Shown: positions 1 to 55,770, numbered from the whole stretch's first letter. The stretch: DNA of 62,862 nt, filler included, from 6 parts of 6 records of this genome joined end to end with filler, not necessarily neighbours in it, one strand, 5' to 3'. Notes: generated by a model not told the origin, from the sequence alone. Program-made: numbers and translations.

Positions 1-205
1 GTGAGTGAGTTTTCGTGAGTCTTCGTGAGTGTGCGCGCGAGTCTTCGCGAGTCGGAGTGAGTCGTCTTCGTGAACGAGTCTGAGTGAATCTTCTTCGTCG
101 GCGAGTGAGTCCTCGTGAGTCGAGTGCTCGTGAGTGAGGAAGTGTTTGGGAGTTTTTGAGAGCGAGTAAGTCTTGGTGAGTGGCAGAACCTTCTTCGTGA
201 GTAGG
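1..205. repeat. Degenerate ~10-bp tandem repeat built on (TTC)GTGAGT/GCGAGT at the contig end
   Basis: GTGAGT/GCGAGT/ACGAGT recur many times in 1-205, often as TTCGTGAGT with roughly 10-nt spacing. Confidence 0.7.
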
Positions 206-593
206 TGCGTTTTTTTCGCTTGTCGGCTGTCTAGACCTGTGCTTTTCTTCTTCGCTTTCCCTTGTTCTGTCTGTCCTTCCGTTGTTGTGGGTGGGGTTCG
301 CAATCCTCCACTTTTCACTTGGGCGTACTTTTTTCTTTTGTGTTGCGCTCCTGCACGAAAGTGAGCTGAGGTGATCCAACAACAACGAAGCGAAGGGCCA
401 GTTGTGGAGGCGGTGGCGGTGGAGCGTTGAACTCCGGCACAGACAGACAGAGACAGCGTCTTAGTTGAGAGGCTGCTGTCTGCCTATCTGTGAGGAATGA
501 AGGTGCTGGGGTGACGACACCCGAGCGGTTCCAGCGAAATGGGTACTACGCAACGTGAGCAACAGATGCTCTGAGTTGGTAAGACCAGACAAA

Positions 594-3500
594 ATGGCCT
601 CGAAACGGAAGACTTCGACGCGCACTTCCCAGCGAGGAAGCCCAGGCGCGAGTCGCAGGGGATCGTCTAGGCCGCACTCGGCAGAACTTGTCCCGGTTGG
701 TGGAAGAATCGAGCATCTTCCCAGAGAGGGTGACAGGTTTGTGCGTGCATGTGCGTGTATGTCTGCCTGTCTGTTTGTCTGCTGCCACTCTATTTCGCTG
801 CCTCTTTGTCTCGCTGTCTGAGCATGTTGCCTCAACCGGTGTGCTTTCGAGCTTCCGGCAATCAAGTCAGAGTTTGACCTCTGCAAGACATCGTGTAGGG
901 GTTCTTTTGTGTGCCCTTTGATGATGTTCGTTCACGCATATTTCGCTCTGAACTGTGTTTTCACCTAGGGGAACCGGGAGTCACCCGGCAACGGGCGGAA
1001 GGCGTCCGAACTCGACGCCAAGCGGCAACCCGCAGCACCATCAACACAATCTCCCCGATAGAAGCGATTCTGACGCAGCGGAGCCAGGCACCTTTCTTAC
1101 TAGCATCGCTTCATCCTCTGAGGCAGCCCTTTCACCTGGCAGCCACCGCAGCACAGGGTCCTCTCCTCGCGAGCGACTGCCACAGAGCATCCGTGGCAGT
1201 GAGGGTGGAGACGGAGGGCATGGATCTTCCAACTCGAGTGATAGCGAAAGTGCGAGGCGCCGTGCCTTGTTGCTCGGGTCATCTCGAAGCGAGCAAGCTC
1301 GCGCTGATCTTCGGGCACATTTAACATCATTGACCGAGCGCAAGGACAGCCAAGGCAACCAACTCGTTTCATTCTCTGACAAGTTCATTCGCCAGGTGAA
1401 GGTAACATCATCGTCGTCTTCACCGCAACCGAATTCTGAGCGGGCAGGCGCCATGAACGACGTGCAATCTGACAATTATTCTGAGGACGAACCCGACAGT
1501 GACAATGACGACAGCTATTCGATGGATTCCGGAAGCTCCAGCGATGAAGAAATTGAAGATGAGCCCGAGGTGGCGCATATTTCTGCGATACTTCCCTCCA
1601 AACCAGAGCGCGATGCAGCAGGCGATGTAGGATCTCAGGCAGAAAGAAAGAACGCTGGGAAATTGCCGAAAAAGAAAAAAAAGCGGAGACGGAAGTCAAA
1701 GCGTCGAAAGGATGCAAAGCAGTCGCAAAAATGTAGCTCCGATAGTGATGGTCGGCTTGACTCTCGGTCCACCCTTGTTGCGTCTCCGCTTCGTTTCATC
1801 GACGAAGTCGAAGAGCAGGTCGACGAGGACCCCAATGCAGCCTTGAACACATTCAACCGACCTTCGTCCGCATTGTTAGTTGCTGAAGTGGTCGGTACAG
1901 GAGGTGTTGACGGGACTGCATCCAGTGCCGGGATCGGTGAGGTGGATGACGGGGGCGTCAAAGGGCTTCGGCATTGGCAAGCAGCAGTCGCTGCACAAAA
2001 TGTCAGGCGGGCGGAGATCATGGGTCCGTCGAAGAGTGACATTGCTCGAGCAGAACTGCGGGCACACCTCGCATCTCTTTCAACCAAAGTGGCGTTTTCA
2101 GAGGAATTTGTGAAGGAGGTTGAGGTTTGTTGTACACTTGCGATACGACTGTCACGATCCCCGACCTTGCGAATGTCGCACGGCGATAAATATCAGTGCA
2201 TTCTTGTTTGTTCATCGACATTTTTTACATCTTGCATGACGCTCTCAGGCGAGTGATCAAGCTGCTCGCTCTCGAGATGCTCGCGTGCAGCAGCTGCTCG
2301 AGGATGATGGGGGCGAGGAGGTGTTGTACGAAGATCGCAGTGACGATGACGAGCCTGATGGGGCTGCTGGGGCTTCATCTCAGGCTCTGTTGGGCAAGCG
2401 GCCAACTGAGACGCGGTCCAAGGGAGCTCCCCGCGAAGATGGACATTCACAGCTTGCTTTCGAGCCTGTGGATTTCAACGTCGCCTTGGAGCTAGGCCTT
2501 GATGCGGACGACGATGAATCAGCGTTGTCAAAAGAAGAGCGAGCACGGCTGGCTCGCCTGCTTGCGGATCCGGGCAAAGCTGGAGGAACTTCTGGCCACG
2601 GGTATGAACAAAACTTTTTGCTCACGGAAATGAATATTGTCTGCGTGAAAGTGTTGTTTTGCATTCTCGTGTAAACTGCGCTTTCTTGTGTGGCACATTG
2701 CATGGTGCACGCAGCCCCGATTTGGCCGAAGAAGAGTCCAAAATTCGCGACATTCAAGCCGCACAAAGGCGCCTCAAAGAGATTGATGCCCAACTGAGGT
2801 CTCTACAGACTCCGCGGATCTTGCCGAACTCCCTTCGAACGAAAACTTCTGAATCGGAACAGAGTGAAAACACCCCATTCGGCGTGTTGCGCACCAGTGA
2901 CAGCTTCCACAGTAGAATTTCAACGCAGGAGCAAAATGTGCCGCCTGTGTCTCCATCTCATTCGCTGAAAACAGCTACTGAATCCCCAAAGACTGCGTTG
3001 GCACTTGAGGACAGCAGCAAAGAGAAAGACAACGCAAGCGATGTGTACGTTTTGACTCCATCTCCCCGCGCTCGCATTGTCACTGTGTTTGCGTGATGCG
3101 TATTCAAAATTGTCATTTCTGCCCATTGTTAGGGAAACGTCGCCTGCAAAACAGCTGGCACTTCGCAAAGAGAAACGTCTCCAGCGTGAGCGACTAAAAG
3201 ATATTGACAAGCGCCTGGCCCAACTTCGCGCTTCAGATCATAATGGTGATGTCGCGAAGAACTTGCTCCCACGAGAGCACATTGATTGTATGGTCCGAGA
3301 AATGGGCCAGGAGTACACGGTGTGTGTGAACAAAGTTGACCCTGCGAGGCACACTCTCTGATTTCGACACTGGCCATGTTGCCCACACTCGCTGCAATGA
3401 CCCGCTTTCTCTCCACCCTTGCAGATTGGCGCAGTTCCCGTCGCTGCTCGCGCTGACATTCAGAGCCTTATAAGTGACCTCCTTAACGCTTCTGACCGCA

Positions 3501-4327
3501 AGCCAAGCGCTGCAGCAGTACGTCGCGAAGTGTTACAAGGCCATTCAAATTTGTGTGCAAACCTTGATCTCATTTTGTACCGATCGCATCTGGCTGTGCA
3601 GGCAAGTGGAACGTTCAGTTTCTTGGACTCCTTGTCTGCGCGAGCACGAGCAACAAAACCGCGCCCCTTAGACTCGCTCACTGTCGCTGATGTCGTGGCG
3701 CTAGTTTCTTCCCAACCCGCAACGACTCCATTTGCTCCCGAATTAGAGCGGCACGCAGTCAACGGGAAAACAATATCGAAGATAACAATGCGCGACCTCA
3801 TGGCAATGGAGGTAGGATCCATGGTCCAACGACGTGCGCTGCTGAAACTCGTGGACCGAAGCAAGCGAGAGGGTGTTCCTTTAGCCCGGCTTCAGAGTGG
3901 TGAAAATGCCAAGAGGTCTGGAACTCCACGGTCCAATGGACCCGTTGCCCGGACGATTAGTCCCAAGATATCTCGACCAGGAAACGGCCATCACACGCCA
4001 CCGAGCGGAAGCAGTAGTGGAAGCCCAAGGACACGGTTTCTTCGCGGAGCGAAAACAACCAAAGCAACTGGCGACTCAACGGTAAGTGGGGCTGGGCGGT
4101 TCCGGAAAAGCCGACAAGATACTGGTCCGCAAGAAAGCCGAGGCGGCACGCCTACGAGTAGCGAACCCGTGACGCTGAGGGAGACAGTGACGCAGCTACG
4201 TGATCGTGGACGAAAGGCAATGGGGGCAACACTCGGCACGAAGGCAGCTGCCGCTGCAAGGAAGGCTGCCCAAGCGAGAACAAAAGGGGTTTCACCAAAG
4301 CGTGAATTCAGTACAGCGAGAAAGTAA
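594..4327 (+). CDS. Eukaryotic multi-exon gene: low-complexity/coiled-coil protein with a C-terminal SAM domain
   Basis: Phase-compatible GT-AG exon model: 594-736, 969-2124, 2249-2601, 2715-3044, 3133-3319, 3425-4327 (possible extra in-frame intron 3518-3601). The segment LDSLTVADVVALVS..PFAPELERHAVNGKTISKITMRDLMAMEVGSMVQRRALLKLV fits the SAM pattern. Confidence 0.7.
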
Positions 4328-4474
4328 TCTTTAGATGTAAGTAAGTATGTGTGCGTCAAATCCGTTGGCTGTGCAACTCATAAGGTCTGGCTGGCACACG
4401 CGAAGTTGTCACGCCGGAGAATTAATTGCCATGCTTGCAGCGAGCAGCTTGAAACTGAAACAGTATTGCGCCAA

Positions 4475-7400
4475 CTACAACAGCGGTTTTGTCATTCCGT
4501 TGGATGCGTCTGAGAGCCGAATGTTACTACTGCCATTGATAGACAGATCATTAGCGCGAGTTGAGGGCTGCATTTGTGGCTGTTCAGCGTTCAGGACACC
4601 AGAAAAAGATAAGCCAGTGCGTCGAACGAATAGTGAATCGCAGGGTATGATGGTGCGCAACCATGGAAATCGACTCACCACGCGACCTCGCTTGCAACAC
4701 TTGAAAACCGGGGAGTTGCCACAGCGCACAAAACTACGTCGGATGTTGTCACCCCAGTTCTTGCAGTTTCGATCATGCGAAGTGAAGTACAAAATAATCA
4801 AGAATATTCCCGTGCAGAAGTAGACAGTGGCAAAGGTAGGAGCGAACTCGCTGATGCTGTCTGAGATTCCTGGCACGCCCTGAATAGTTGAACAAAAACG
4901 AACGAGCCAAACAAGAGCCCGTCAACAGCATGCACGCATGTGCCACACACAACGATGGGACAATGCCAACTCCCTGCATGTGTGTATAAACTCTCGGGGA
5001 GCACTAACCAGCCCGGGTTTGATCTCGTTTCCAACGATCTTGTAAGAGTGAATCACTCCGAAGAAAGAGAAAACTGCCCCCAAGAACATCCAGACAGCTG
5101 CAGACTCGAATTTGTTGTCCAGAACATACACCAATGTGCTCGACAGGATTATGCCAATAAGGAGGTACCTTCAAGAAAAATGATAAAACCAGCATTCAAT
5201 CAGAAACCCTGACAGCAGTTGACGATGTTCCAAGGCCAGCTATCCGCATCCGCACCCCTGGGCAAGGCTCATAATTCCGTAGACAAAGGTCCCACCAATC
5301 GTCAGCTCAGCAGAAATGGCCTCCAGGCTAGTGTAGTTAATAAGAAGGTTCACGTCGTGTTCTGAAAGCTCTGTGCTGTTGGCCATCACTGCATGTGCTG
5401 CATCCACCGTTCCCGTGATAAACGCGAGCGCCCAAGCAGAGATCGGCGGCAACAATCCAACGACAACTGCGGCGGAGTAGTCAAACGCATTGTTCTCCTT
5501 TGCAAACGCCTGTTTGGTGACCAGGATGCCAATCCACATCAGGAACCCAACCCCTGCAGGAAGAGGAATATACCTTCAGCGGCACAATGCAGCACACGCA
5601 ACAGCTGAGCAAGCACTTCGATGAGTTGTGCCAGGAACAAAAGCAAGCATTTCGATGGGCCAAGCCAGCACCAATGGAACTCACTTGGCCACCGCTGTCA
5701 TGGCGCCACTAAATCCTAGAGCACCAAGAATCACGGCACTGCCGAGAGCATAACCTGTACGAATTCCTGATGCTTTGAATGCACTTTGCCCGATGAAAAT
5801 TCCCGTTGGGAACGGGTTCCCAAAACAGGCAGAAATCATCGTCACAAGTGCGTCCGCCACAAGAGACTACGAAGCAGGACGGAACAAAAATGCAGCATCA
5901 GAACTCCAGGTCACGAAAAACTGGCGGCTGACAAACCACAGCCAATTTCCCCACCCTGAACCTGCCCACAAGGACCGGCAATAATCCCAACCGCTTCCAC
6001 CACCACCAACGTCCACGCAAGCAATGCAACAAACGGGTTCAGCAAGTAAGCCAAACCACAGCGTCACCAACCTGCCAGCGGGAAAAATTATCGCCGACAG
6101 TGTGAGCGGTCTCGATGTTGGCAAGATTCTGGACAAGATTCACGAGGAACATCGGAAAGATGACTGGGAAGTAAGACCAGCCAAGACCCGTAAAAGCACT
6201 GCCGAGGATGCTGAACTGCGGAGGTGGCAGCACGAAGTGAATGCTGACGTTGCCAGCCATTGGCTGAAACTCGTCATAGGTCGTGATTGTATTTCGTAGC
6301 CAAATTAGGAGCCAGGCCAGAATAGTGCCAATGACCAAGCTCACAAGTCCAGCGGGAAGGTTCCACGGTAAGCGCGTGTTCGAAGCGTAGATGATGAGAC
6401 AGAACAGCATCGGAAACAAGGCATACGAGGGGCTTTGATATATCTCGAACAAAAAGTTCAAAGAAATATAAGTCAACGACACGCCTGCCACCGTGCTGAG
6501 CATTGCCTCGCGGGGGATAATCTTCACCACGAAGCGGACCACTGGCACTGCCACCTTTCGTTAAACGCAATCACATCAACACGAATATCGTCACTGACAT
6601 GCATCATCAAAAATGAATCTGTGGTGTGGTGGTGGTGTGGGGGGCAACCAGGGCCATGCACATCGTCGCCACTTCGTACCAGCTGCATCAGGCCACTCAT
6701 AAAACCAGCAAAGCATCCAGCGCCCCAAGCCTTTTCGAAGTCGCCCGTCTCGTCATAGACGGGTTTCATCACCAAAAGTGCAAAGGCGTACAACAACACA
6801 ATGTTGACACCGTGAATCTGGGAAGTTACATCAATTCGCCGTTCTGCAAACTTCATGCGCAGCCCTTGTGCCCAGAAAAAGCCGTTGCCGAGCAGGTAAG
6901 CCAACCCCATGGCAGGAATCACTCCATCCAACGCAACACTGGGTGGCATGCCACAGGCGGTCACCAACAATTGCACTGTCAGAAGCATCTGTGTCAGTCC
7001 ACCCAGCAGCTGCGAACAAATGCCGTCCAGGTCACGGACGACAAACCAGCCACAAGGGTCAAACCAACGATGTTTTGGGGCCATGGTAAGGGCCATTTCT
7101 GGTGTCACCTGCAAGTTGGTGATGCTGTGGGACTCGAGACCGAGCACTGCGGTTGTGTGCGCCCACCCGCAGGACACACGAACACTTTCGATGGAGATAT
7201 TCGGCAAAACCATGCCTGACAGCACCTGGCAAGCAGAAGCAGGAAACGTCGTTAACAAGCAACATAACAGGGCTATTGGACCCAGCAGTTATCACCGACG
7301 ACCGCCTAGCTGGCAACGAACTTGTGTCGGTTGAGCCTTCGAGTCCAAACTTGGCAGCCCAAGTTGGCCATCATCACCGCGACCCCACGCGTAGACTTTC

Positions 7401-9481
7401 AGCGTCGGTTGCAACTGCAAATCCATCACCAAACCAGCTTCTGCGGCAGCTGCTGCTTCAGCTGCTGCAAGGTTGTTGCTGCTGCGGCGGAGCATCGCCC
7501 CTGCACTGGCTTGACCAGGCACTTTTGCTGCTGCAGCGCAAACACACAGAGAGTGCCGCCCCCCGGCAGCCAGAGCAAGAACTGGAAGCCCCCGCAGCGC
7601 TGGCACCGGCTGAGGGTGCAAACTGTATCGTCCAGCCACACGGGATCCAATCGGGGCCTGCATTCCAAGCTGACCATACCTGCGCAAACCAGCAATAGAC
7701 CCCATCCCCAAAAGTGAAACCGAAAAATCTACAACACAGGGTCGTCATCACCATAGCTGACTCATGTCGACACGCACTGGTTCCAGCCCCAGGCGAGCGT
7801 TTGAACAGTGTCGGGATCAAATGTACTGTCTGCGGTTGTGTCCGCAAACCGTTCGTCCAAAAGATTCAATTTCCCCTCCGACAATAAGAGCACCTCTCCT
7901 GGAGACAGCTTCCGAACACAGCACAGACTGTGGCGATACCCAGCTGCAATTTTGATCACGGCAAATTTCGAGTAGTTTGCGTACCTACCGGATGTAGTTC
8001 ACGAAGTCAGCACGCAGCAAATCGATGTTATTCGAGACTCAGGCATTGGAAGTTGTCGGCGCAATCCCAGCGTAGCAAATAAACTCGAAAACAGACAGTG
8101 TTTTTTGGGGAACGGCTAATATAGCAAACAACGACATGAAGCATGTTGCGTTGCTGCTGGCAGTAACACACTGCGCTACGTACGGGATCCTGCCGCTGGC
8201 TTGAAACGCAGGAGCTTGGTCTGGCTCCGAATCAGCGCGTGCTTTTGTCACAGTCAACTCATCAGCGCGGCTCATCGCGGCAACTGCCGCGTCGCGGGCA
8301 GCTTGGGACGTGTTCCTATTTTGGCGCACGTCGCGACTCCCGAGCCCATCGCGTGACTTGTTGCCACCTCCACCAGGACCGCCAGCGTTGTCACCAAAGC
8401 TGGATGTACGGTCGTCTGACAGGACTGTGCCAATAGTCCGGGCTTTGGATGATGCCGGCCTGACAAGCGATCCAAGTGGCGTATCACTGTCTTGGGGAGT
8501 CCGATCCGACGGCGACGCCATCGACGCAGCAGCTGGCCTGTTTCCTCCTTGCGTAAATGTAATGGGACGTGTTTCATTAATGTCGAACGACCGAGCAGTA
8601 CTGCGATTCCCACCAAAGCTGTCAAACGATGGAAACACCACGAACGTTGGCGCTGGACGACTTTCTCTATCGCCAGTGCCAAGCTGGCCGTAAATACCCC
8701 ACCCCCAGCAGAACAAAGCTCCGTCAGACAGCTGGCAAAGAGTATGTCGAGAACCACATGATATGTCCATCACCTGATCCACAAGTGGGAACCCTTCCAG
8801 TCGCCGCGGAGTCTCGTGACTCACATAATTTCCATGACCGAGAGATCCGTCATCTCCGCAGCCCCACGAGAAAATGCTTCGACGATCCTGCGAAACCGCC
8901 AGAGAAAACATGCGCCCGCATGCCACCTTGCCAATCTTAGTGGACTCTGCAAGGGTGCGGACAATGCGGGGTTCACAACGAGTGCGACGTTGTAAACTTC
9001 CATCATTCTTTTGCTGATCTTCGCCGGGAGCAGGGCCACTGTCACCGAGCTGCCCATCATCATCGCGCCCCCAGCAATACACCAGTCCCTCGTCGTCCAC
9101 GGCCAGAGCATGGGACCCTCTGGTGGCAATGTCAACGATGGTCTTGTCAGCAAAGGCTTGCACCACCTGCGGCCGAGTCTGCAGGTTGGTGTCATACCCC
9201 AGCTGACCGTCGTCGCCGCGTCCATGGGTGAACACGCGGCCTTTGTCAGACAATATCATCGTAAATCGACTGCCGCAAGCGATGTTCGCAGGTCGCATTG
9301 ACTCAGCCACCACGTGCGGACGGATACGTCCGATTGTATCACCCACTCCCAACTGCCCGTTGGCGTTGGCGCCCCAGGCGACAGTCTGCAGCATCGGCTT
9401 CTCGTCATCGCTTCGCTTTCGCTGCTGCGCTCCAGCAGCACCAGCCCTGCCCGACTCACCCTGATCGGAACTAGCGCTCAT
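4475..9481 (-). CDS. Eukaryotic 9-exon gene: N-terminal 7x RCC1-repeat beta-propeller fused to an AzgA/NCS2-like (xanthine/uracil/vitamin C permease-related) membrane transporter, ~1318 aa
   Basis: Exons on the minus strand: 9481-8184, 7984-7778, 7679-7322, 7225-6680, 6554-6072, 5866-5685, 5573-5256, 5168-5009, 4879-4475. All introns are GT-AG and phase-compatible; total 3957 nt, divisible by 3. RCC1 motifs: WGANANGQLG, HGRGDDGQLG, WGRDDDGQLG, WGCGDDGSLG, WGWGIYGQLG, WGWNQYGQLG, WGRGDDGQLG. Permease motifs: WFVVRDLDG, PREAMLSTVAGVSLTYIS, NIETAHTVGDNF, FGNPFPTGIFIG, LMWIGILVTKQAF, SFFGVIHSY. Confidence 0.82.
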
Positions 9482-9576
9482 GGCTGGACGGAGACGCACC
9501 GACGAGCGCCGCCACCGACTCCGAAATTCGGCAGGAAATTAGCCAATCAGATTCGGAATCACAAACAATAAAAAAT

Positions 9577-9616
9577 TAAGCAGAAGAGAAGAAGAAAAAG
9601 AAGAAGAAGAAAAAGA
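9577..9616. repeat. (GAA)/A-rich microsatellite at the contig end
   Basis: agcagaagagaagaagaaaaagaagaagaagaaaaaga immediately before the gap. Confidence 0.7.
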
Positions 9617-9716
9617 NNNNNNNNNNNNNNNNNNNNNNNNNNNNNNNNNNNNNNNNNNNNTTAATTAATTAANNNNNNNNNNNNNNNNNNNNNNNNNNNN
9701 NNNNNNNNNNNNNNNN
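9617..9716. other. Artificial contig linker (N-TTAATTAATTAA-N, six-frame stop)
   Basis: Identical 100-nt linker occurs five times in the window; TTAATTAATTAA gives stop codons in all six frames. Confidence 0.97.
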
Positions 9717-33700: not shown

Positions 33701-33800
33701 NNNNNNNNNNNNNNNNNNNNNNNNNNNNNNNNNNNNNNNNNNNNTTAATTAATTAANNNNNNNNNNNNNNNNNNNNNNNNNNNNNNNNNNNNNNNNNNNN
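33701..33800. other. Artificial contig linker
   Basis: N44-TTAATTAATTAA-N44. Confidence 0.97.
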
Positions 33801-39601: not shown

Positions 39602-39701
39602 NNNNNNNNNNNNNNNNNNNNNNNNNNNNNNNNNNNNNNNNNNNNTTAATTAATTAANNNNNNNNNNNNNNNNNNNNNNNNNNNNNNNNNNNNNNNNNNN
39701 N
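39602..39701. other. Artificial contig linker
   Basis: N44-TTAATTAATTAA-N44, flanked by (CAA)n and poly-T. Confidence 0.97.
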
Positions 39702-48253: not shown

Positions 48254-48353
48254 NNNNNNNNNNNNNNNNNNNNNNNNNNNNNNNNNNNNNNNNNNNNTTA
48301 ATTAATTAANNNNNNNNNNNNNNNNNNNNNNNNNNNNNNNNNNNNNNNNNNNN
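48254..48353. other. Artificial contig linker
   Basis: N44-TTAATTAATTAA-N44. Confidence 0.97.
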
Positions 48354-55670: not shown

Positions 55671-55770
55671 NNNNNNNNNNNNNNNNNNNNNNNNNNNNNN
55701 NNNNNNNNNNNNNNTTAATTAATTAANNNNNNNNNNNNNNNNNNNNNNNNNNNNNNNNNNNNNNNNNNNN
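55671..55770. other. Artificial contig linker
   Basis: N44-TTAATTAATTAA-N44. Confidence 0.97.

Follow-up and report, generated by a model that had tools for sequence, protein, structure and literature searches.

Can one eukaryotic gene encode both a seven-bladed RCC1-like propeller and a many-helix solute permease, and what would such a protein do at the membrane? The question is raised by positions 9481-4475, on the minus strand, of a DNA window of 62,862 bases (by the window we mean the whole stretch of DNA that was analysed, at its full length). RCC1-like propellers are soluble regulators of Ran and other GTPases and of ubiquitin ligases, and also serve in ultraviolet-B (UV-B) sensing. A sequence-only reading of the locus had proposed a spliced eukaryotic gene in which a complete propeller of this type is fused to a bacterial-type AzgA/NCS2-like permease. 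The interval is one transcribed 10-exon eukaryotic gene, and it adds a member to an architecture that already exists, though undescribed, in sequences that are public under uninformative names. Taking the data jointly, its product is very probably a single 1285-residue propeller-transporter membrane protein, in which the propeller would form a cytosolic regulatory or docking platform.

The two halves meet within a single exon and a single reading frame. The stop-to-stop frame 6524-7288 (minus strand, 254 residues) includes VRVSCGWAHTTAVL, which forms the last RCC1 strands (7183-7142), and WFVVRDLDG (7048-7022), which comes 31 residues after it, with no stop between them; as had been claimed, the junction is thus independent of any splice model. 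Both elements lie in exon 4, the junction exon (6680-7225, 546 nucleotides (nt)), together with the linker of about 31 residues that separates them (7141-7049) and the first transmembrane (TM) helices. Four public sequencing runs were found for the region, and three of them (here X1, X2 and X3) were compared with the window over 4300-9616. X2 provides a single contig of 7485 nt that aligns to 9577-4300 with nine skips of 87-205 bases. At 9/9 joints the skipped bases begin and end with CT..AC on the plus strand, that is GT..AG on the strand of the gene, with 0 differing letters in the listed pieces. The X2 contig crosses the junction exon unbroken (6678-7223, 0 differing letters; the exon occupies positions 2002-2547 of the X2 record), and this supplies sequence support within 7000-7250, where such a check had been suggested. 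In X1, the DNA contigs still contain the introns, and one of them spans 5887-9577. X1, a DNA run and possibly the source sample itself, is not independent support, and X3, a marine metagenome, contributes two short pieces only, at 8346-8877. X1 and X2, which come from different samples, concur in sequence over 6678-7223.

With the exons placed by the X2 contig, the coding sequence is 3858 nt long and open over all 1285 codons, from an ATG at 9481, with an in-frame TAA upstream at 9541-9539, to a stop codon at 4477-4475. The idea of a spliced eukaryotic gene is thereby borne out by nine GT-AG joints, and the splice coordinates 7322, 7225 and 6680 given in the sequence-only reading are exact in the X2 contig. 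Its single spliced frame also stands, whereas its count of nine exons and its length of 3957 nt do not, since there are 10 exons and 3957 nt corresponds to 3858 nt plus the 99 nt of an unspliced intron 9. This intron (4580-4678, GTGAGT...AG), seen as the X2 joint 4579/4679 with CT..AC ends, is in frame and stop-free and is therefore invisible to a reading of open reading frames (ORFs) without RNA.

A search for further proteins carrying both domains, also suggested by the earlier reading, brought out many. The junction exon itself finds P0001, a protein of 1232 residues with 75% identity over 100% of the exon, in which RCC1 repeats are present and which is colinear with all window exons. HMMER with exon 5 (173 residues) matched 335 cluster representatives at E<=1e-3, 97 of them at E<=1e-10. 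From the best 150 of these 335 relatives, 19 were scanned with Pfam, namely 18 of the 20 with at least 600 residues and one of 535 residues; an N-terminal RCC1 domain was found in 15 of the 19, among them every protein (15) in which the permease match begins past residue ~300, and the RCC1-less ones are P0007, P0024, P0030 and P0014. A search with the permease half of an Aphanomyces protein gave 20 proteins at E<=1e-10, with RCC1 in 14/20. Fused carriers comprise five Aphanomyces species, Saprolegnia parasitica, Achlya hypogyna, Pythium oligandrum and Lagenidium giganteum, and a protein from an MMETSP transcriptome also has the fusion, its taxon id being that of Cercozoa. Named relatives include Aphanomyces hypothetical proteins of 975 residues, equal in length across several strains, and a fused protein of Hondaea fermentalgiana that is entered as 'RCC1 and BTB domain-containing protein 1'. 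The X2-based model of the window protein aligns end to end with the fused relatives, the last helix (exon 9) included. Judging from these alignments, the RCC1-permease fusion is conserved in oomycetes, thraustochytrids and other protists. A longer variant is seen in the P0023 cluster (17 members, from marine metagenomes including Tara), where a protein of 1424 residues has ~345 extra residues before the propeller (RCC1-like domain at 347-714); its gene was predicted without interruptions, on contigs of ~9-10 kb.

The propeller half (residues 31-649 of 1285) extends over 7142-9391, introns 1-3 included. Pfam recognizes five RCC1 stretches (PF00415) in the ORF 8042-9538 (182.4 bits, E 1.9e-54) and two more in the ORF 7295-7744 (58.3 bits), against a cut-off of 21.7; the former ORF also matches PF25390 WD40_RLD with 187.1 bits, for a cut-off of 150. 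P0001 likewise has seven RCC1 stretches (257 bits), and the proposal of a complete seven-repeat domain holds. An AlphaFold2 (AF2) model of the fused Aphanomyces protein P0010, built with an alignment of 18 fused sequences (A2) and with a mean predicted local distance difference test score (pLDDT) of 80.9, shows a closed seven-bladed propeller of 28 strands, i.e., seven blades of four, at residues 35-399 (pLDDT mostly 84-96), a low-confidence linker of 17 residues (400-416) and a helical domain (417-943). The window protein aligns with all the blades of this propeller and carries two inserts, one of ~150 residues that is of low complexity and disordered, the other Ala-rich. Alignment A2 contains invariant propeller residues, such as those of the G-W-x-H of the last blade. 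The predicted contact between the propeller (30-400) and the membrane domain (412-945) of P0010 has a score of 0.01 for a mark of 0.34, a comparison made with no controls that speaks neither for nor against contact. A search of the ESM Atlas with P0010 gave no usable match.

The permease half (residues 681-1232) extends over 4736-7048, introns 4-8 included, and covers positions 7-512 of 524 (97%) of a profile of 32 stand-alone permeases (A1) with 446 bits; the profile envelope ends at residue 1232, i.e., at window position 4736. Its fold was approached through a stand-alone relative, P0014, whose AF2 model, built with A1, has a pLDDT of 90.8 and a predicted template modelling score of 0.88. 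Foldseek with this model returned 99 PDB matches at E<=0.001, headed by UraA, SVCT1, SLC26Dg, BicA and SLC26A3. With VIA-align, the same model gave Z scores of 27.8 for UraA (root-mean-square deviation (rmsd) 3.8, 364 residues aligned), 26.3 for Bor1, 25.8 for AE1, 25.7 for AZG2 (rmsd 3.9, 381 aligned), 25.4 for prestin and 23.3 for UapA; 124 chains reached Z>=8, and the top 50 are all NAT, AzgA, SLC26 or SLC4 proteins (Z 21-28, 336-409 residues aligned). The P0014 model thus indicates that the permease half has 14 helices in the 7+7 inverted-repeat elevator fold common to NAT/NCS2, AzgA, SLC26 and SLC4, and modelled structure alone does not choose a subfamily among these four.

The relatives of this permease are abundant in bacteria. 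In a prokaryote-only collection of species-representative genomes, at least 594 of 600 matched stretches resemble the P0014 gene, with carriers among Verrucomicrobiota, Planctomycetota, FCPU426, Geobacteraceae, Methylococcaceae, Acidobacteriota and Myxococcota; this agrees with the statement of the sequence-only reading that NCS2/AzgA-like proteins usually stand alone. The stand-alone proteins are ~510-590 residues long, share the motifs G-D-x-D-G-F-F-G and I-Y-I-G-H-P-G-W-K, and have neither a Pfam or NCBIfam model nor a PDB relative by sequence. They are a candidate for a new family definition.

Trees were built from permease domains covering at least 85% of the A1 profile, a requirement that retained 159 of 271 matched sequences. 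The FastTree analysis used 84 rows (20 fused, 38 RCC1-less of unknown origin and 26 bacterial, the last being every third of 78 usable loci) and the IQ-TREE analysis 51 rows under LG+C20. Both trees have a supported branch that sets all fused rows to one side: with FastTree the support is 98 and the side has 24 rows, with IQ-TREE the Shimodaira-Hasegawa-like approximate likelihood ratio is 95 and the side has 19 rows, and this side contains no bacterial-labelled row in either tree. Within the fused group, the window protein, P0001 and P0002 stand together with a support of 100, and the oomycetes and Hondaea form groups apart from them. This pattern fits a fusion that arose once, some of its RCC1-less rows being truncated models or losses. 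The trees are unrooted, AdeP, UraA and DauA being too remote to root them, and a bacterial donor cannot be read from them. The epithet 'bacterial-type' thus keeps its sense as regards abundant bacterial relatives, but not as a statement of bacterial origin.

How might the two halves work together? The predicted protein consists of the propeller (residues ~31-649), a linker of ~31 residues, the transporter (residues ~681-1232) and a tail of ~50 residues. Going by its fold family, the transporter core would act as an elevator-type secondary solute transporter in a cell membrane. The N-terminus of the UraA/UapA/SLC26/SLC4 fold is cytoplasmic, which would place the propeller in the cytosol, held close beneath the membrane by the short linker. 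Like the cytosolic parts of SLC4 (its N-terminal domain) and of SLC26 (STAS), it would most likely be a regulatory or docking platform that steers the sorting, turnover or activity of the transporter via a bound partner, which may be a small GTPase or a factor of membrane trafficking. The sequence-only reading had proposed that such a fusion could couple transport to signalling or trafficking.

A number of points weigh against this reading and should be considered together, beginning with the gene and its transcript. The protein is predicted from DNA and a spliced contig. X2 belongs to another sample and study than X1, and its RNA nature is deduced from the intron-sized skips; its RNA label is a tool's guess, and no run on record is listed as an RNA holder. 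The X2 contig passes the 3' end of the gene by ~3.3 kb, into a convergent neighbour. Contigs cannot show transcript starts, transcript ends or abundance, and an internal start may give a permease-only isoform. The fold models were made for bacterial (P0014) and oomycete (P0010) relatives of the window protein. In the trees, RCC1-less rows are found inside the fused group, four with FastTree and three with IQ-TREE, drawn from P0007, P0024, P0052 and P0119; either their gene models were cut short or the propeller has truly been lost in them. P0024 begins at profile position 30, and the permease of P0007 is nearly identical to that of the fused P0016. From such features, P0007 and P0024 look like truncated gene models, while P0052 and P0119 may be real propeller-less forms.

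Other points of this kind concern the identity of the permease half. Pfam gives no threshold-level match for the window permease exons, for the permease of P0001 or for stand-alone members, NCBIfam nothing relevant for the window permease exons and six family members, and a PDB sequence search with the A1 profile no chain at E<=10. Gene neighbourhoods at 80 bacterial loci show no conserved partner (the commonest real neighbour occurs in 7/80) and provide no substrate hint; the large neighbourhood clusters found there consist of ORFs that lie within the permease gene, in antisense or overlapping with it. In TM10, the Glu of AdeP (Y-I-E-S) and of UraA (G-E-N), an acidic residue that in NCS2/NAT and AzgA proteins is part of the substrate-site motif, pairs with the Gly of the family's I-G-H, a pairing that is uncertain because these alignments are remote (85.6% and 58%). 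Finally, in the window protein and its two closest relatives, P0001 and P0002, the near-invariant His of TM10 is replaced by Gln (I-G-Q), and A-L-P in TM3 by S-Q-I; in the window, these sites are found at 5791-5765 (exon 6) and in the 6830-6800 region (exon 4).

What, then, is this permease? The best Pfam score among the window exons is that of exon 6 to PF00860, Xan_ur_permease (12.6 bits, E 0.056), for a gathering cut-off of 27. P0001 has no match to PF00860 at E<=1, and 2/32 stand-alone members do, the better at 2e-4; a Geotalea genome that holds a family member gives 0 PF00860 matches, and 12 of 14 control genomes have one. With hhalign, the family profile finds AdeP at 85.6% (E 5.6e-6, 243 columns, from TM5 to TM12), UraA at 58.0% (149 columns) and DauA at 24.6%, a ranking that was obtained with single-sequence templates. 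Joint Genome Institute (JGI) and other automatic cluster names for bacterial members read 'AGZA family' or 'NCS2 family permease', and are automatic labels. SulP/SLC26 proteins combine a Sulfate_transp core with a C-terminal STAS domain; Pfam gives no match to these families in P0001 or the fused relatives, and the C-terminal tail of the window protein has ~50 residues. The description as AzgA/NCS2-like is therefore sustained by the fold and by AdeP as best profile match, but not as membership of the Pfam Xan_ur_permease family. The family's own TM10 motif is P-F-P-T-x-I-Y-I-G-H-P-x-x-K-A-M-G-A-R-x-G-Y, and in the window protein the motifs of the family are retained in TM3, TM8 and TM10 as well as ahead of TM1. 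Together, the sub-threshold Pfam score and the TM10 Gly point to a family in its own right, unmodelled so far and distantly sister to AzgA/NCS2. The substitutions of His by Gln and of A-L-P by S-Q-I are hints, at the level of sequence motifs, of a changed substrate site in the sub-clade of the window protein. Because of these and of the TM10 Gly, neither a nucleobase substrate nor the coupling ion should be assumed; our guess is a small polar or heterocyclic solute, of which a nucleobase is one candidate only, and a rather doubtful one.

Among other explanations of the locus, the one that fares best is that the protein is a transceptor or a membrane-anchored exchange factor, the membrane domain sensing a solute or providing an anchor and the propeller giving the output on a small GTPase, and from there on trafficking or signalling. 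RCC1-like domains of the RCC1, RPGR, HERC and Alsin type, to which the PDB relatives found here belong, act on or bind small GTPases, every fused lineage has kept the propeller together with the permease (invariant residues of A2 such as the last-blade G-W-x-H included), and the linker between them is short. Against this, the motifs of TM3, TM8 and TM10 are conserved in the fused clade much as in the bacterial stand-alone forms, which is what one expects of a working transporter, and the best PDB relatives (HERC1, HERC2 and UVR8) are not themselves exchange factors; we regard this explanation as unlikely. A bolder variant, that these proteins are solute-gated signalling devices of protists of the SAR group (stramenopiles, alveolates and rhizarians), in which the RCC1 propeller reads out the elevator cycle on a small GTPase or trafficking factor, is a long shot of much the same order. 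Were it true, solute availability would directly control membrane traffic or growth polarity, and the membrane half would represent a transporter family not defined before, which hundreds of bacterial species possess and whose substrate site differs from that of the nucleobase permeases.

That two neighbouring genes, for an RCC1 protein and a permease, were merged by assembly, read-through or contig building is far less probable still, indeed very improbable. Logan contigs can fuse overlapping transcripts, X2 does run ~3.3 kb into the convergent neighbour, and its RNA status is a guess. The contig alone is thus no proof of one transcript, but the junction lies within a single exon and a single frame without a stop, and the sequence over 6678-7223 is the same in two runs of different samples. 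Moreover, 15 of the 19 relatives that were scanned have the fusion, as do annotated genomes of oomycetes and of Hondaea and a transcript from MMETSP, and the permease has no start of its own before its conserved N-terminal motif, except M665 and M669 in the linker. Scarcely credible at all is a propeller that gates the transporter as a UVR8-type sensor of light or of another physical cue, which was rejected on motif count and equal HERC scores: by sequence, P0001 has its best PDB matches in UVR8 chains (E 4.7e-50), which are also among the best for P0010, and the last blade has G-W-A-H-T, but HERC1 and HERC2 score as well or better for P0010, so that the likeness to UVR8 is generic, and the fused family has one G-W-x-H (the two preceding blades reading G-Y-R-H-S and G-G-R-H-S in the window protein, G-Y/F-R-H and G-G-R-H in the family) against the three G-W-R-H-T motifs that supply the tryptophan cluster of UVR8.

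The preferred reading, that of a transporter with a built-in cytosolic propeller, can also be set beside known systems. AzgA-type proteins (AdeP of E. coli, AZG2 of Arabidopsis, PDB 9j18) have the 7+7 fold in common with the permease half, and AdeP is the best profile match of the family; the family nevertheless falls below every curated threshold and has Gly-His, or Gly-Gln in the window protein, where AdeP has the Glu of YIES, and we know of no AzgA protein with an N-terminal propeller. Within NAT/NCS2 (UraA, 5xls/3qe7; UapA, 5i6c; SVCT1), UraA is the top structural match (Foldseek E 2.1e-7, 20% identity). UraA has short strands in the middle of its third and tenth helices, and the P0014 model has similar ones (residues 104-106 and 326-328). 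The family differs in its partial profile match to UraA (58% over 149 columns), in having I-G-H where TM10 of UraA has G-E-N, and in the lack of Pfam membership. SLC4 proteins (AE1, Bor1) and SLC26/SulP proteins (prestin, SLC26Dg, DauA) again have the same fold. In these, a 14-helix elevator core is combined with a sizeable cytosolic domain, N-terminal in SLC4 and a C-terminal STAS domain in SLC26. The fused protein shares this design of core plus cytosolic domain, but its cytosolic domain is a β-propeller unrelated to the N-terminal domain of SLC4 or to STAS, and the relation to DauA is weak (24.6%). Seven RCC1 repeats are likewise present in HERC1/HERC2, UVR8, RCC1 and RPGR (sequence matches with E 1e-35 to 1e-65); there the propellers belong to soluble proteins, whereas the propeller of the window protein forms the N-terminal part of a membrane transporter of the polytopic kind and holds a disordered insert of ~150 residues.

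The remaining parts of the gene, all on the minus strand, are as follows. The 5' untranslated leader covers at least 9482-9577, the X2 contig reaching 9577 and continuing for 40 more letters. Exon 1 (8184-9481, 1298 nt) contains the ATG, RCC1 blades 1-4 and most of the ~150-residue low-complexity insert (residues 283-433); its donor, CCC/GTACGT, is seen as the X2 joint 7979/8179. Exon 2 (7778-7984, 207 nt) encodes the RCC1 blade with the AAGYRHS motif and aligns to P0001 and P0002 in addition to being placed by X2 joints, and exon 3 (7322-7679, 358 nt), placed by X2 joints and Pfam, encodes the RCC1 repeats with AAGGRHS and the Ala-rich insert. Downstream of the junction exon, and also placed by X2 joints, exon 5 (6072-6554, 483 nt) provides the permease helices up to the TM8 motif PM.LVN..N.AN.ETA..GD, and exon 6 (5685-5866, 182 nt) the TM10 motif GNPFPTGIFIGQSAFKASGIRTGY. 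Exon 7 (5256-5573, 318 nt) corresponds to the region of permease helices 11-12 and exon 8 (5009-5168, 160 nt) to that of helix 13, both from X2 joints and alignment. Exon 9 (4679-4879, 201 nt), which aligns to P0002, encodes the last TM helix, FAPTFATVYFCTGIFLIILYF, and the first residues of the tail that follows it, and the coding part of exon 10 (4475-4579, 105 nt) ends with the stop codon. A homology-only exon model (nine exons, 3927 nt) was dropped for the X2-based one; it had a donor at 8208 for 8184 and 6673/6547 for 6680/6554, two sites at which the sequence-only reading did better, and missed intron 9. One X1 DNA contig is without one base at 7559, in a G-run of exon 3, a loss that would put the reading frame out; the in-frame version is shared by the window and the contig of X2. 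X1 also differs at 9528-9529, in the 5' leader, and a minor contig is without two bases at 4991, in intron 8.

The window itself consists of six contigs chained by five artificial joiners, N44-TTAATTAATTAA-N44, at 9617-9716, 33701-33800, 39602-39701, 48254-48353 and 55671-55770; the first of these, which has no strand, marks the end of the eukaryotic contig. Contig 1 (1-9616) is the sole eukaryote-like part, with ORFs fragmented as in spliced eukaryotic DNA. The later contigs have uninterrupted frames for typical bacterial proteins, such as sucC (succinate-CoA ligase beta), sucA/sucB (2-oxoglutarate dehydrogenase E1/E2), leuC and eutB, and fall in two ranges of GC content, ~50% and ~42%. Given the spliced contig 1 and these bacterial contigs, the record mixes a protist with at least one bacterium. 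On contig 1, a convergent neighbour gene (952-4327, plus strand) has long low-complexity frames rich in Ser, Asp and Lys and ends ~150 base pairs from the stop of the RCC1-permease gene; as the X2 contig extends ~3.3 kb beyond 4300, the 3' ends of the two convergent genes probably overlap in RNA.

The sequence-only reading had known of no described protein with this architecture. A literature search, largely outside subscription journals and with supplements aside, found no description of an RCC1-permease protein, and passages searched in PMC12301720 proved irrelevant to such a fusion. The architecture is not unique to this gene, however, since it is present in many protists, deposited as 'hypothetical', 'RCC1-like domain-containing' or 'RCC1 and BTB domain-containing protein 1'. 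With no Pfam or NCBIfam model for the membrane half, the fusion is invisible to domain-based annotation.

A propeller hard-wired to a transporter of the UraA fold is a domain combination that has been kept across oomycetes, thraustochytrids and a Cercozoa-labelled transcript. It opens the way to defining and de-orphaning a transporter family that is widespread in bacteria and protists, and it offers a natural system for learning what control a propeller in the cytosol has over an elevator transporter. Among its carriers are several oomycetes that cause disease in crops, fish and crayfish, which makes a lineage-restricted surface transporter of this kind of interest as a marker or target.

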